From: Patescibacteria group bacterium
GTDB taxonomy: Bacteria > Patescibacteriota > UBA1384 > XYA2-FULL-43-10
Direction: 5' to 3'
Length of the DNA stretch: 64,000 nt
Assembly (NCBI GenBank): GCA_041674405.1
Contig: JBAYVT010000002.1
Coordinates: 23,158-87,157 of the forward strand
Numbering within the stretch: the stretch's first letter is position 1; every line of letters begins with the position of its first letter. A model generated the notes under the pieces. The model worked only from the letters and a program-made list of their open reading frames with translations. It had not been told where the DNA came from and searched no databases. Shown in pieces: positions 11,268 to 50,721 of the stretch. Both the position numbers and the translations under genes were made by a program.

Positions 11268-11316
11268 TTACAACAAAAAGCCTTGCACTGCCACTCCGGG
11301 AGTGGCAGTGCAAAGT
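11268..11316 (-). terminator. Rho-independent terminator downstream of the M29 aminopeptidase gene
   Basis: Minus-strand read: 14-bp stem TTGCACTGCCACTC / GAGTGGCAGTGCAA followed by GGCTTTTTGTTGT. Confidence 0.7.
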
Positions 11317-14638: not shown

Positions 14639-15838
14639 TTATTTCGTCAAAGTTTTTACCAGGTGGTCAAGAGCCTTTGCTCCCGCATCTTCCTTACTCG
14701 AATCAATTTTTTGGTCTTGAATAATTTTACCTAACATGAGACCAATTTTAACATTTTTGGTAGCCTGTTCGCGCATATCTTTGCGAATATCATCAATTTT
14801 TTTCTTCATATTTTCCAGATATTTTTCGAAACTCATTCCCGAAGATTCTACTTGTCCGCGAAAATGTTCTATCATTCTTTCTGTTTCCTGGATAATCAAT
14901 ATCTCGGGAATGTCAACTTTGAGAAGAGGTAATACTTTTTCGATTACTGAAAGCTCAAGCTCGTTTTTGTATTTCGCATCAGTTTCTTTTTTGAGGCTAT
15001 CCATGACAGCCGATTTTAATTCGGAAAATTTCTTGTGCCCATAATGTTCTGCAAATTTGTCGTCGAGTTCGGGAAGGATGACCTCTTTGAGGTCTTCAAG
15101 TTTAACATTGAATTCTGCTTCCTTGCCGGAAAGTGTTTTCTCGTGATAATCTTTCGGAAATTTGATTTTAAAGGTTTTTTCTTCACCCTTTTTCATCCCC
15201 ACAACTTCATCCTCAAATCCCGGAATCAGATTTCCTTCGCCCAAAATGATCGGGTGATTTTTTGAGCACATTGCATCAACTTTAACGCCCTTCTTAAAAC
15301 CTTCATATGAAATTTCTGCCCGATCTCCCTTTTTTGCCGAGCGTTCAGCATCCTTAAATGTTGCTTTTTGTTTGCGCAAATGTTCTAAAATTTTTTCGAC
15401 ATCAGTTTCTTTTGGTTCTTCTTTTTTTGGTGCTTTCACTTTTAGTTTCGAATAATCCCCAAGCTCAATTTTGGGCATAACATCAATTTCGGCAGTATAT
15501 TCCAAATTGTCCTTAATATCTAGTTCATCGATCGAAAAGTTCGGAGATTTTGTAATTTTGATATCTGGCTGCGATAGTGGCATAATTTTTTCGCTTGCAA
15601 CCACTTCCGGATAACTTCCCCTTACAGCACAATCAATCCCTTCAGAAATGAGGCGATTGTGGCCAGCTGCAGATTCTACAATTTTGTACGGGGCCTTGCC
15701 GGGGCGGAATCCATCAAGCTTCATTCCGGATGCAACTTTTTCGTAAGCTTCACGAAAATATTTTGCAAGCTCTTTGGGTTCAACTAGAACTTCTAGTTTC
15801 ACTCGGCTGTTTTTAAGATTTTCAAGTTTTACCTTCAT
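14639..15838 (-). CDS. tig: Trigger factor
   Basis: N-terminal ribosome-binding domain with DGFRPGKAPYKIVE, a FKBP-like middle region, and a long K/E-rich C-terminal arm. Confidence 0.85.
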   Translation of the reverse strand: MKVKLENLKNSRVKLEVLVEPKELAKYFREAYEKVASGMKLDGFRPGKAPYKIVESAAGHNRLISEGIDCAVRGSYPEVVASEKIMPLSQPDIKITKSPNFSIDELDIKDNLEYTAEIDVMPKIELGDYSKLKVKAPKKEEPKETDVEKILEHLRKQKATFKDAERSAKKGDRAEISYEGFKKGVKVDAMCSKNHPIILGEGNLIPGFEDEVVGMKKGEEKTFKIKFPKDYHEKTLSGKEAEFNVKLEDLKEVILPELDDKFAEHYGHKKFSELKSAVMDSLKKETDAKYKNELELSVIEKVLPLLKVDIPEILIIQETERMIEHFRGQVESSGMSFEKYLENMKKKIDDIRKDMREQATKNVKIGLMLGKIIQDQKIDSSKEDAGAKALDHLVKTLTK

Positions 15839-15907
15839 AATATTCCCAACAATAAAATAATAATTTACTCGTATAGATTATCATATTAAGACTAGGATTG
15901 AAAGTCT

Positions 15908-15937
15908 GGTAGCACAGGCGGAACCGCCTGTGCTACC
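15908..15937. terminator. Perfect inverted repeat GGTAGCACAGGCGG-aa-CCGCCTGTGCTACC
   Basis: A 13-14-bp GC-rich stem immediately downstream (minus strand) of the small GC-rich ORF. Confidence 0.5.
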
Positions 15938-15961
15938 GACGGCAGCAGAGGGTGTGGGACG

Positions 15962-16114
15962 TTATCCGGGCCAGTTGGCCGGATCGTTGTCGGGGTCGTA
16001 GGTGACTGGCTTAGCCCGTTTGCGGGCATCATTCAGGATGATCAACAGGTCGGCAAACGGCACATCGGGTACTGAGTCCGAAGCTACCTGGTAATCGCCG
16101 GCATAACCACACAT
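15962..16114 (-). CDS. Small GC-rich ORF (50 aa) MCGYAGDYQVASDSVPDVPFADLLIILNDARKRAKPVTYDPDNDPANWPG
   Basis: Manual translation. GGAGGT SD sits 6 nt upstream. Local GC is about 58%, against about 38% in the flanks. A perfect hairpin follows it. Confidence 0.25.
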   Translation of the reverse strand: MCGYAGDYQVASDSVPDVPFADLLIILNDARKRAKPVTYDPDNDPANWPG

Positions 16115-16167
16115 AAAACTACCTCCTGGTCCTTGATTCCCTCTTGCATTTTATATATCACTTTAGA

Positions 16168-17172
16168 TCAATATACGCTATATCCACCAAATTTTTTTAA
16201 TTCAGAAAGCAGAAGCTTTTTATTGCTTTTATCACCGCAGAAAAGCAAACATCCTCCTCCCCCAGCACCACAAGCACGGTGGGAATATCCGTATTTTTCC
16301 GCAATTTTAGCCATCATTTTCATGTTTTTTGTATAATATGCACTTGATAGATCTAGGCGCAAATTCCTATCATTGGCGATTCCTGTTTTGAGCATAGATA
16401 GGTCTTTCCCCAAGATCCCTCGCCAAATATCTTCCGCATTTTTGGCAATCTTCTTAATTAATAATGGATTTTTTTCATATCCAGATCTCATTTGAGAGTT
16501 TAGTTTTCCTGATGATCTCGATTCACCGCTGTAATATACCAGAATATGATTCAACACCCAGTTATATAACGGAGAGTTTTCTTCTCTATGGTCAATCATC
16601 TTCGCTTCTCCATATCCAGGACCACCAAAAGTCATGTAGTTCATTCCTCCGTGCCACGCAGCATAATAATCTTGCTTGCCTCCTAAAATTCCCATCGACA
16701 TTTCAACCAAATAGTTCAATTCGGGAACATTTACACCGGGAATTTCATAAAGTTCGGAAAGTGCCATGATCACTCCAACCCCTACCGCCGAAGAAGTGCC
16801 TAGGCCAGAAGCAGACGGAATGATGCCAACACTGGTAACTTTTATTTCCAATCCATCCGGCTTTAGGTTAAATAACGAAATAAAATGTCGGACAATCTGG
16901 CTAACATTATTTTTTTCTTGTTTGATAAGATCTTCAATACTCCCTTCGATTTTCTCGCCCAAATCAGGAAGTTCGAGTTTAATACCCTTGCCGCCATTCA
17001 GTTTCGCTTCAACTTTGACTTGTACCGGTAAGGCAATATTTACAACCGAGCCACGATCCGCTTTAAGTTTCTTAAGGTAGTAGCTAATATCTGTAGAACC
17101 GCCGGCAATATCTGCACGAACTGGCACGAACAGAGTTACCCTTTTCATCATTTCCTCCTGGATTTCTTCCAT
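16168..17172 (-). CDS. GHMP-family sugar(-phosphate) kinase
   Basis: PSASGLGTSSAVGVGV (GHMP motif II) and a C-terminal GAGGGG motif. Confidence 0.7.
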   Translation of the reverse strand: MEEIQEEMMKRVTLFVPVRADIAGGSTDISYYLKKLKADRGSVVNIALPVQVKVEAKLNGGKGIKLELPDLGEKIEGSIEDLIKQEKNNVSQIVRHFISLFNLKPDGLEIKVTSVGIIPSASGLGTSSAVGVGVIMALSELYEIPGVNVPELNYLVEMSMGILGGKQDYYAAWHGGMNYMTFGGPGYGEAKMIDHREENSPLYNWVLNHILVYYSGESRSSGKLNSQMRSGYEKNPLLIKKIAKNAEDIWRGILGKDLSMLKTGIANDRNLRLDLSSAYYTKNMKMMAKIAEKYGYSHRACGAGGGGCLLFCGDKSNKKLLLSELKKFGGYSVY

Positions 17173-18498: not shown

Positions 18499-18538
18499 AT
18501 TAAAACAAAAACAAACAGCTGTTTGTTTTTGTTTTAAT
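18499..18538. repeat. Perfect AT-rich palindrome AAAACAAAAACAAACAG|CTGTTTGTTTTTGTTTT
   Basis: 17-bp arms with no spacer, in the spacer between the ASCH-like and pfkB genes. Confidence 0.5.
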
Positions 18539-37877: not shown

Positions 37878-37906
37878 TTGACATAATTTAAAAATATTGT
37901 TAAAGT
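37878..37906 (+). promoter_or_regulatory. Consensus-like sigma70 promoter (TTGACA-17-TAAAGT) divergent from the rpsB promoter
   Basis: Read directly from the sequence. It would drive the RNA and tRNA-Ile downstream. Confidence 0.5.
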
Positions 37907-37912
37907 CGTTTT

Positions 37913-38093
37913 TGTCGGTTTCGCGGGAGATCGAAACCTGACGGGGCGAGGGTTCAAGGAGTCCGCTCCAGTCTCCCGCCTAATGGTGGCGAAGCGAAAG
38001 CTTATTGCCGAGAGGCAATCGCAAGTAACCAATCTTGCCGCCATCCCAAACATTAAACCGCCCATGGGCGGTTAAGCTTGCCTCTTTGGAGGC
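37913..38093 (+). ncRNA. Candidate structured non-coding RNA or long tRNA leader (unclassified)
   Basis: About 180 nt between the promoter and tRNA-Ile. GC-richer than surroundings. Nested helices GCGGGAGA...TCTCCCGC, GGAGTCCGCTCC, CCGCCC-atg-GGCGG. No ORF on the + strand. Confidence 0.3.
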
Positions 38094-38170
38094 AGGGTAC
38101 GTAGCTCAGTTGGATAGAGCGTCTCCCTGATAAGGAGAAGGCCGGGGGTTCAATCCCCTCCGTACCCACC
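38094..38170 (+). tRNA. tRNA-Ile (anticodon GAT), CCA encoded
   Basis: Manual fold: acceptor GGGTACG/CGTACCC; D arm GCTC-AGTTGGATA-GAGC; anticodon stem TCTCC/GGAGA with loop CTGATAA; T arm GGGGG-TTCAATC-CCCCT; then ACCA. Confidence 0.85.
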
Positions 38171-38257
38171 ACCCTTCCCTCTCTGCGCCTCGCGCAGAGA
38201 GGGTTTCCCGTTTTTAGGCTTGATTTTAAGTCAATATTCTGTTAATATAATTTCGTT

Positions 38258-49436: not shown

Positions 49437-49465
49437 TTGACAAAACTACCCTTATGTTATAATAT
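49437..49465 (+). promoter_or_regulatory. Strong sigma70-like promoter (TTGACA, 15-17 nt, TATAAT/TAATAT) upstream of the GC-rich ORF
   Basis: Read directly from the sequence. AT-rich, host-like. Confidence 0.5.
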
Positions 49466-49508
49466 TCCAAGTTGGACTCATACACCGACATACAGGCTAC
49501 AGGAGGAG

Positions 49509-50102
49509 ATGTTCGTGATCGACAAAGTTAGAGAGTTCAAACCATGGGAGAAGCCGAGGGCTGACGGGAAGCACAGCATCAGCTTCTTGATCGGGTTTCG
49601 TGCCGTACTTGCGATCCCGATCCAGCACTATGACGCCGTTCTCGGCGGTCTCTACTGCGTCGCCGTCCTCCTGCTTAGAGAGGATGGGGACCATGAGATC
49701 AGAGACCGGTCGAGCGGGCTCTTGGAAATCTTGGCAGGCCGAGAACAGGATAACCTGCCACTTTCCGATCCGGCCAAGCTCGAGATGTTGGTCGGGGTCC
49801 TGTCTTCGATCTCATCCAACTCGACCGCCTACCGGCTGTACAGGAACACGGCAACCCGCAGGGTCGTGATCGTCCGCGAGGAAGGCGAAATCGGCGAAGG
49901 GGCTACAGAGAAACCTGAGAAAAGACCAGCAGGCATCGCTGCCTGGTCCGTCGAAAGGTTCAATGAATGTCTCGCTCGTGGCCACCACCGGTTCGAGGGA
50001 CGCATTCTGGTGAACAACCGAGGGGGCCAGCCTTACGAGCTGATGGTGTGCACTGACTGCAGAGTCACGATCGCAGCGATGCAAGTGATCCCGGGCAAAT
50101 AG
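49509..50102 (+). CDS. GC-rich hypothetical protein 1 (about 197 aa), unrecognised family
   Basis: AGGAGG 8 nt before an in-frame GTG (2 nt before ATG). GC3 about 70%, with a normal-looking amino-acid composition. Alternative frames give S/R/P-rich junk. A hairpin follows the stop. Confidence 0.4.
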   Translation: MFVIDKVREFKPWEKPRADGKHSISFLIGFRAVLAIPIQHYDAVLGGLYCVAVLLLREDGDHEIRDRSSGLLEILAGREQDNLPLSDPAKLEMLVGVLSSISSNSTAYRLYRNTATRRVVIVREEGEIGEGATEKPEKRPAGIAAWSVERFNECLARGHHRFEGRILVNNRGGQPYELMVCTDCRVTIAAMQVIPGK

Positions 50103-50129
50103 CCCAAGAAGGAGGATAGAGCCGAGCGG

Positions 50130-50160
50130 CCCCGATTCAATTCGGGGTCGTTCTGCGTTT
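50130..50160 (+). terminator. Hairpin CCCCGA-ttcaat-TCGGGG followed by a T-containing tail, between the two GC-rich ORFs
   Basis: Read directly from the sequence. Confidence 0.3.
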
Positions 50161-50237
50161 TATCCACAGCAATATTTTTGACAGCGGTATATATCAAGTG
50201 GTAAGTCTAAAATAGATCGTATTACTTCCGCATCGGG

Positions 50238-50639
50238 GTGATTTTGATGGGAAGTTCGTCAGGTCGGCGTCGACGCCCGTCTTCGGTATGGAAGCAAGCA
50301 TACCGCGCGAATGGTAAAGCTCACAAGCTCACCAAGTCGGGCGAAGACGAGAAGGCTGCCGAGGCGTTTTACCAGAAGGTAGGCTGTGTCTGCGAGACAT
50401 CGCTTACCCCAGGCTTTACGCAATGGCAATGGGATCCTGTCGTAGAAGCCGTCTCGGTATCTCTAGCACACCCGCCGAAGAAAGAACGGCACAAGCGACT
50501 CCATGTTCCTCCAGACGTACTGGAGGAATACATCAGAGGGAACGGCTTTTCAAGCCGCGAAAGGAACTTCCTTCTGAAGCGCCTTCGGCAAGTACTTCGG
50601 TACCGAGAGAAAGGCGCTCCCCAACCTTACGTTCGGTAG
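50238..50639 (+). CDS. GC-rich hypothetical protein 2 (about 130 aa, basic, Arg-rich N-terminus)
   Basis: Preceded by an AT-rich promoter-like segment (TTGACA at about 50178). High GC3. No family recognised. Confidence 0.35.
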   Translation: MILMGSSSGRRRRPSSVWKQAYRANGKAHKLTKSGEDEKAAEAFYQKVGCVCETSLTPGFTQWQWDPVVEAVSVSLAHPPKKERHKRLHVPPDVLEEYIRGNGFSSRERNFLLKRLRQVLRYREKGAPQPYVR

Positions 50640-50671
50640 GCAACCCTACTCTATCAACCCCGCAGTAACCT

Positions 50672-50710
50672 CGCGCGGGCCATCCGTGGCTCGCGCGTTC
50701 CCCGTTTTTT
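50672..50710. terminator. Rho-independent terminator CGCGCGGGCC-atccgt-GGCTCGCGCG then TTCCCCGTTTTTT (bidirectional; also follows ligA)
   Basis: 10-bp GC stem with one mismatch, then a T run. Confidence 0.7.
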
Positions 50711-50721
50711 AGTACAAAATT

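Follow-up and report, generated by a model that had tools for sequence, protein, structure and literature searches.

In the 64-kb stretch of DNA analysed here (the window), a short GC-rich patch interrupts the AT-rich intergenic region between a GHMP-kinase gene and tig. The question that this locus raises is whether the patch is a gene, an RNA, a regulatory element or a remnant, and where its unusual composition would come from. A previous sequence-only reading had reported a GC-rich patch upstream of tig with a 50-aa ORF, a Shine-Dalgarno sequence (SD) and a perfect 14-bp hairpin, and all of these were found where that reading had placed them. The translation of the ORF, hereafter ORF50, is an exact match to the 50-aa peptide quoted there. 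We tentatively favour, at a little under an even chance, the explanation that the island is an orphan gene for a small protein, specific to the strain and unlike the host in composition. The gene would carry a terminator-like hairpin and occupy a variable slot upstream of tig. This explanation builds on what was observed of the anatomy, the composition, the orphan status and the reproducibility of the unit across assemblies.

Composition and layout of the island

The region 15900-16130 has a GC content of 58.0%, and the top-scoring GC segment (15904-16102) reaches 0.613, where the overall value for the 64-kb window is 0.403. The flanks have values of 0.235 (15839-15906) and 0.316 (16130-16167). 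The GC-rich DNA begins at the SD and extends through the hairpin, and its edges are compositionally sharp. A GC content of at least 57% over 223 nt is found at three sites only in the 64 kb, namely the micro-island, the tRNA-Ile region (37.9-38.2 kb) and a cassette at 49.5-50.7 kb. Coordinates of the features can be seen in Table 1. As a separate observation on the second of these sites, about 200 nt at 37895-38094 (plus strand, about 55% GC) between rpsB and tRNA-Ile(GAT) (38095-38171) contain no convincing ORF and fold into multiple hairpins with z = -3.45, a value matched by 1 of 200 shuffles. Rfam returned no family for this stretch even at E <= 1, and it may represent a so far undescribed structured RNA that is co-transcribed with tRNA-Ile.

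Table 1 Features of the micro-island and of the GC-rich cassette. Positions are those of the window.
Feature	Position	Strand	Remarks
GC-rich micro-island, 58-61% GC	15904..16129	.	between GHMP-kinase gene and tig; flanks 24% / 32% GC
AT-rich spacer	16130..16167	-	from GHMP-kinase stop (16168-16170) to SD
Shine-Dalgarno AGGAGGT	16121..16127	-	6 nt 5' of ORF50 ATG; read directly
ORF50	15962..16114	-	50-aa acidic peptide; one predicted helix (residues 20-33)
GC-rich spacer, 24 nt, 71% GC	15938..15961	-	from ORF50 stop to hairpin
Perfect 14-bp inverted repeat, 2-nt loop	15908..15937	-	terminator-like; weak U stretch after (AGACUUUCAAUCC)
AT-rich tig upstream region, 24% GC	15839..15907	-	weak promoter-like site 15884->15857
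orf195, GC-rich orphan gene	49515..50102	+	TTGACA-17-TATAAT promoter 49438-49466; terminator hairpin
orf133, second GC-rich orphan ORF	50238..50639	+	own terminator hairpin; missing from L163

The island lies within a run of minus-strand genes that encode, in this order, a PfkB-family kinase, an ASCH-domain protein, an NDP-sugar pyrophosphorylase and a GHMP kinase, followed by the micro-island, tig, an MFS transporter and ClpP. In the same operon, a loopless, perfect AT-rich palindrome of 20+20 nt (ATTAAAACAAAAACAAACAG/CTGTTTGTTTTTGTTTTAAT) was observed at 18499-18538, between the PfkB-kinase and ASCH genes.

The two arms of the hairpin before tig (15908-15921 and 15924-15937) are 14 nt each and 100% complementary, with 2 nt between them, which as RNA gives 13 bp and a 4-nt loop. 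By our own calculation, about 0.003 palindromes of this kind would be expected by chance in 64 kb. The stem has 67% GC and lies 24 nt 3' of the ORF50 TAA, the distance from the hairpin to the tig ATG is 69 nt, and the fold of 15840-15945 has an energy of -41.5 kcal/mol (z = -6.7). With regard to the usual criteria for intrinsic terminators, a GC-rich stem-loop near a stop codon is present and a U-tract directly 3' of the stem is absent, the tail having UUU only at +5 to +7. A terminator scan of 15700-16400 called 0 sites. The window has four perfect hairpins of at least 12 bp with loops of 0-3 nt, all of them intergenic, and two of the four are clear terminators with T-tracts, one after a minus-strand gene (11281-11315) and the other after tRNA-Ile (38177-38203). 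Clear intrinsic terminators here thus consist of perfect 12-16-bp stems with 1-3-nt loops and then T-tracts. Other canonical terminator-like sites were barely above shuffles in the first 20 kb (27 compared to 18.6 +/- 4.6). From its position and shape, the hairpin before tig would be a terminator-like or transcript-stabilising element that divides the upstream operon from the tig promoter.

A promoter scan found no sigma-70-like promoter on the minus strand between the GHMP-kinase stop and the SD. Since ORF50 has no promoter of its own, we infer, as the simplest assumption, that it is co-transcribed with the upstream operon, by read-through from the same-strand pfkB-ASCH-NTP-transferase-GHMP-kinase genes. 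The compact unit of SD, 50-codon ORF for a presumably cytoplasmic small acidic peptide, 24-nt spacer and very stable hairpin would then be translated from its own SD, and the hairpin would end or stabilise the transcript ahead of tig's own promoter.

Orphan status and coding signals of ORF50

ORF50 is annotated publicly as hypothetical protein WC080_01610 (MFA7243965.1) of a Patescibacteria group bacterium MAG. We searched it against 5.8 billion protein clusters with a word-indexed search and against 1.84 billion representatives with exhaustive phmmer/HMMER, and both searches returned ORF50 itself as the sole match. There was no significant match in Pfam, PHROGs, NCBIfam, PADLOC or the sequences of the PDB. 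The best Pfam score was for DUF6373 (13.9 bits, E = 0.056, residues 27-47), where the gathering cut-off is 25 bits, and the other five frames of the island gave sub-threshold, low-complexity Pfam matches only, such as DUF5862 with 15.7 bits in a start-less antisense frame and DUF4653 with 15.0 bits in an overlapping 46-aa minus-strand ORF. All three scores are below threshold and were dismissed as compositional noise. Phage and plasmid records, searched as DNA and as protein, contained no match to the island or ORF50, viral contigs searched by protein and by hairpin sequence contained none either, and no donor of the island was found in the protein, phage, plasmid and viral searches. ORF50 is a strict orphan in all collections searched. 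The sequence-only reading had also raised the question of paralogous GC-rich small ORFs elsewhere in the genome. No ORF50 paralogue was found within the 64-kb window and, since the protein searches include the called genes of the MAG, there is none among those called genes.

Two other identities were considered for the sequence and rejected. For a piece of rRNA or of some other known RNA there was no match in Rfam, and blastn of the fetched loci described below, which include a 16S gene on L007, was empty. The N-terminus MCGYAG recalls the MCGIVG of purF in the window and could have marked a relic of a class-II glutamine amidotransferase; the likeness stops at six residues, and Pfam and the PDB give no support to such a reading.

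The GC contents of the three codon positions (GC1/2/3) of ORF50 are 0.63/0.43/0.65, where 52 long host ORFs have GC3 values of 0.29-0.46. This pattern is coding-like and similar to that of orf195 (0.57/0.43/0.68) and orf133 (0.63/0.46/0.57), the two ORFs of the 49.5-kb cassette, and it is unlike the host. We then scored codon usage with a table trained on orf195, orf133 and the homologue of orf195 in contig L163, and with a host table for contrast. The ORF50 frame has +0.09 log-units per codon with the cassette-trained table and shifted frames have -0.5 to -0.6; the training genes themselves, left out one at a time, have -0.01 to +0.13, to which ORF50 is similar. The host table fits ORF50 worse than the cassette table. 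The codon log-likelihood is positive in the ORF50 frame and the antisense frame only and, as is usual, the antisense frame scores about as well. Both GC1/2/3 and the cassette-trained codon score agree with the compositional link to the cassette that the sequence-only reading had drawn. The SD is of a type also used by host genes, as 11 of 53 in the window have a GGAGG-type 5-mer.

Since the GC and GC3 values are far above those of the host, the DNA was probably not born of the local AT-rich intergenic sequence and would have been acquired from a GC-richer source. Horizontal gene transfer and genomic islands are reported as frequent in Patescibacteria (PMC12455944), which makes an acquisition of the island plausible.

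The ORF50 peptide contains 8 Asp, 2 Lys and 2 Arg and has a net charge of -4; a tryptic peptide by which it could be recognised is, for example, AKPVTYDPDNDPANWPG. It has no hydrophobic segment, the longest hydrophobic run being FADLLIIL (8 aa). AlphaFold without an alignment gave a single helix at residues 20-33 with moderate confidence (mean pLDDT 73), a model whose small size precludes a meaningful fold search. A small toxin of the membrane or type I kind, one of the specific functions that had been suggested, does not agree with this charge, the missing hydrophobic segment and the single short helix of the model.

The slot upstream of tig and the cassette at 49.5 kb

Relatives of the locus were gathered by tig-anchored scans of genome and metagenome contigs, and 162 loci were fetched. 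The tig proteins of the relatives are 46-57% identical to that of the window, and tig is the sole member of its 90%-identity cluster, which means that no close strain exists. The island was absent from the 162 loci by blastn, tblastn and tblastx. Only one relative, L003, has the NTP-transferase/GHMP pair beside tig. It lacks ORF50 and has different GC-rich ORFs in the gap, within a 600-bp stretch of 54% GC (local windows up to 61%) that holds two orphan ORFs and follows a scaffold gap. This scaffold gap, at 3127-3226 of L003, consists of exactly 100 N where the GHMP-kinase gene meets the GC-rich stretch; the left boundary of the island of L003, the closest relative, is consequently unassembled. 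The absence of ORF50 from the relative that shares the sugar-nucleotide pair also bears on the proposal of a RiPP-like precursor. The neighbours in the window are sugar-nucleotide genes, ASCH, PfkB, tig and an MFS transporter, among which no modifying enzymes or transporters fit such a precursor, and this proposal is not supported.

The slot of L004 holds a 184-aa orphan ORF, and those of L005, L007 and L084 hold ORFs of 140-208 aa, where the L084 ORF matches a Pfam FabA-like domain. By eye, the slot ORFs of L005 and L007 resemble the FabA-like hotdog ORF of L084. The slot ORFs lie at 3253-3858 in L003, 3306-3860 in L004, 2381-3007 in L005, 3300-3857 in L007 and 46-468 in L084; they have 50-58% GC in genomes of 39-45% GC, and several are orphans. 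These loci suggest that the site directly upstream of tig is a variable slot with differing accessory ORFs, and the unit of the window sits in it just before tig.

We also aligned the 120 nt upstream of tig. L004 and L005 have canonical terminators of the preceding gene (GC-rich hairpin and TTTTT), with a conserved extended -10-like motif, TGTGATATGGTTAT, after them. The region of the weak promoter-like site in the window aligns with this TGTGATATGGTTAT-type -10 region of the relatives, and the position of the ORF50 hairpin is that of the L004 and L005 terminators.

The cassette at 49437-50720, between purF and ligA, allowed a similar comparison. A search for homologues of orf133 returned nothing. 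orf195 has one homologue, with a BLASTP identity of 56% (106 of the 181 residues aligned, 58%), which lies on L163, a 1.1-kb Logan contig (1-1129). The L163 gene has about 56% GC, a GC3 of 0.67 (0.71 for orf195 of the window) and AT-rich flanks. It has the same promoter as orf195, and its terminator stem has a compensatory C-G to A-T change. As in the window, it is convergent with the 3' end of ligA; its upstream neighbour is gatC instead of purF. Only 57 of the 106 residues conserved between the two proteins use the same codon, which indicates that the high GC3 has outlasted substantial synonymous turnover. As judged from this pair of genes, the persistent high GC3 of orf195 does not fit a simple recent import that is moving to host composition.

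ORF50 shares with the cassette a GC content of 56-58%, a high GC3, a host-type SD, a terminal hairpin, orphan status and a position in an intergenic slot between housekeeping genes. In contrast, it has no sequence similarity to the cassette, and it has neither the perfect promoter of its own nor the homologue in another genome that orf195 has. Because orf195 and its homologue both keep, at one and the same locus of diverged genomes, a GC3 near 0.7, we raise the speculative idea, to which we assign a low probability, that ORF50, orf195 and orf133 belong to a class of GC-rich orphan units kept by this Patescibacteria lineage between housekeeping genes. Such units could be characterised by slots upstream of tig or downstream of ligA, by host-type expression signals and by a terminal hairpin. 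If the idea were true, the GC-rich composition would be actively maintained, either by selection on RNA or DNA or through repeated delivery from a GC-rich reservoir, for which the host of the episymbiont or an undescribed mobile element would be candidates, and this would count against a passing import that drifts to host composition. More generally, ORF50, the cassette and the L163 homologue together hint that reduced Patescibacteria genomes have specific slots for small genes of foreign composition, in which such genes are gained, exchanged and sometimes kept.

Competing explanations and known systems

The main rival to a small-protein gene is that the island is a non-functional relic of a larger GC-rich accessory gene or of imported DNA, in which case ORF50 would be fortuitous or decaying and the hairpin would be the terminator of the upstream operon. 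We consider such a relic possible, although rather unlikely. In favour of a relic, ORF50 is a strict orphan, and since it has no homologue there is no evidence of purifying selection. Its length alone is not unusual either, as an ATG-initiated ORF of at least 50 codons was present in 18% of the dinucleotide shuffles of the island. The larger accessory ORFs in the slots of the relatives indicate that turnover at the site is real, and the hairpin is placed as their terminators are. However, an ORF of at least 50 codons together with a GGAGG-type SD at the correct spacing was present in only 0.5% of the dinucleotide shuffles, so that the strong SD at ideal spacing and the full ORF are a rare combination by chance. 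The codon-position GC pattern is intact, tblastx found no residual similarity to the accessory genes of the relatives in any frame, and alternative frames have no Pfam signal above threshold.

A GC-rich island in an AT-rich genome, which is the composition seen here, is a classic sign of ncRNA, and the GC-rich transcript of about 220 nt might act as a small regulatory RNA, possibly of dual function, with the ORF incidental or secondary. We regard this as improbable. The unit does end in a very stable hairpin, and with that hairpin included the folding z of the whole unit is -5.3 on the sense strand, and a second fold with the hairpin gives -3.8. Nevertheless, the 196-nt body without the hairpin has z = -1.47 (sense) and -0.80 (antisense) and is not significantly structured. 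Since the body folds no better than shuffles, unlike the GC-rich stretch adjacent to tRNA-Ile (z = -3.45), the excess folding energy comes entirely from the terminal hairpin. Rfam had no match at the gathering threshold and, trivial miRNA-type hairpin matches far under the gathering scores aside, no family match even at E <= 10. No upstream promoter was found for such an RNA, and an SD with an ATG and coding-like codon periodicity are present. The structured sRNA of the sequence-only reading is therefore not borne out. The island looks like an mRNA: an SD precedes a coding-like, unstructured body, and the stop is followed, after a short spacer, by a strong hairpin. On balance, the intrinsic evidence points slightly to a real small gene rather than an sRNA. 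In its general form, the proposal of a small protein thus gains modest support from the SD spacing, GC1/2/3, the codon score and the unstructured body, while the specific kinds of protein that were named with it do not.

The last of these was a leader peptide. In this explanation the island would be a cis-regulatory leader of tig, in which translation of ORF50 controls the hairpin and the read-through into tig by attenuation. The arrangement is suggestive, as the ORF50 stop is separated by 24 nt from a strong hairpin that, on the same strand, directly precedes tig, yet several features make attenuation highly unlikely. The MFE and centroid folds contain one dominant hairpin and no competing anti-terminator pairing or alternative hairpins, a leader peptide of 50 codons would be long, and regulatory codon runs and a U-tract are absent. 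In the relatives, tig has its own -10 region and no equivalent leader. Judging from footprint size, the stem would also be out of reach of a ribosome that stands on the stop codon.

We hold it to be just as highly unlikely that the unit is a mobile micro-element, whether an integron-type cassette that lacks a promoter and carries an attC-like palindrome, a MITE, or the hairpin end of an IS200/IS605-type element. The compact unit of SD, ORF and palindrome, the sharp compositional boundaries and the position in a variable slot are all what such an element might have. On the other hand, neither inverted nor direct terminal repeats mark the boundaries, the palindrome is not flanked by a GTTRRRY/RYYYAAC core, and its stem pairs perfectly and has no extrahelical bases. 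A second copy of the island or the hairpin was absent from the window, the 162 fetched loci and the viral collection, and no integrase or transposase is present among the neighbouring genes (ORFs within 13-19 kb).

Finally, an assembly artefact or chimeric insertion has a practically negligible probability, although the composition is foreign and none of the related genomes has the island. The same sequence with both island junctions is present in two contigs, of which the ENA contig (MEGAHIT-style, 137.9 kb) matches 6.1 kb of the window with 100% identity and the JGI contig (6.6 kb) matches 4.7 kb with 100% identity. The ORF50 protein is on record as a called gene in NCBI (155,940-bp contig), JGI/IMG, ENA and Logan, and the gene signals of the unit are coherent. 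All contigs carrying ORF50 appear to be of the same strain, and the source samples have the accessions JGI 3300037067 and ENA ERZ27247358. Identical sequence in separately recorded contigs means that the island is not a misassembly. The sequence-only reading had named absence from related genomes together with signs of misassembly as a refutation; the absence was found, and the misassembly was contradicted.

Taken alone, the small-protein gene that we favour would be one more hypothetical small protein of an uncultured bacterium, set apart by its GC excess only. Its limited value lies in being a clean, assembly-verified orphan that is far GC-richer than its genome, a direction contrary to that usually seen in orphan and imported genes.

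In a survey of species-specific orphan genes, the GC content of orphans closely tracks that of the host genome, with lower values in orphans that are phage-derived or arose de novo (Genome Res 2024;34:888, PMC11293555). ORF50 is similar to these surveyed genes (SSOGs or ORFans) in that it is short, restricted to a single lineage, largely predicted to be disordered, rare and known only as a hypothetical protein. It differs from them in being 17 GC points above its genome, with a GC3 of 0.65 compared to 0.29-0.46. Being off the orphan GC trend counts against a de novo birth from the local intergenic DNA of 24-32% GC.

When compared to an intrinsic terminator, the ORF50 hairpin has a similar GC-rich perfect stem 24 nt past a stop, the position of the canonical terminators of relatives and the perfect-stem, tiny-loop style of the host terminators; it differs in that it has no immediate U-tract, has a nominal loop of 2 nt and was not called by the consensus scan.

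SgrS/SgrT, RNAIII/hld and SR1/SR1P are dual-function sRNAs that encode small peptides. Unlike these, the ORF50 unit has no promoter, structured non-coding domain, conservation or known target, but it resembles them in being a unit of about 200 nt with a small ORF and a strong terminal hairpin.
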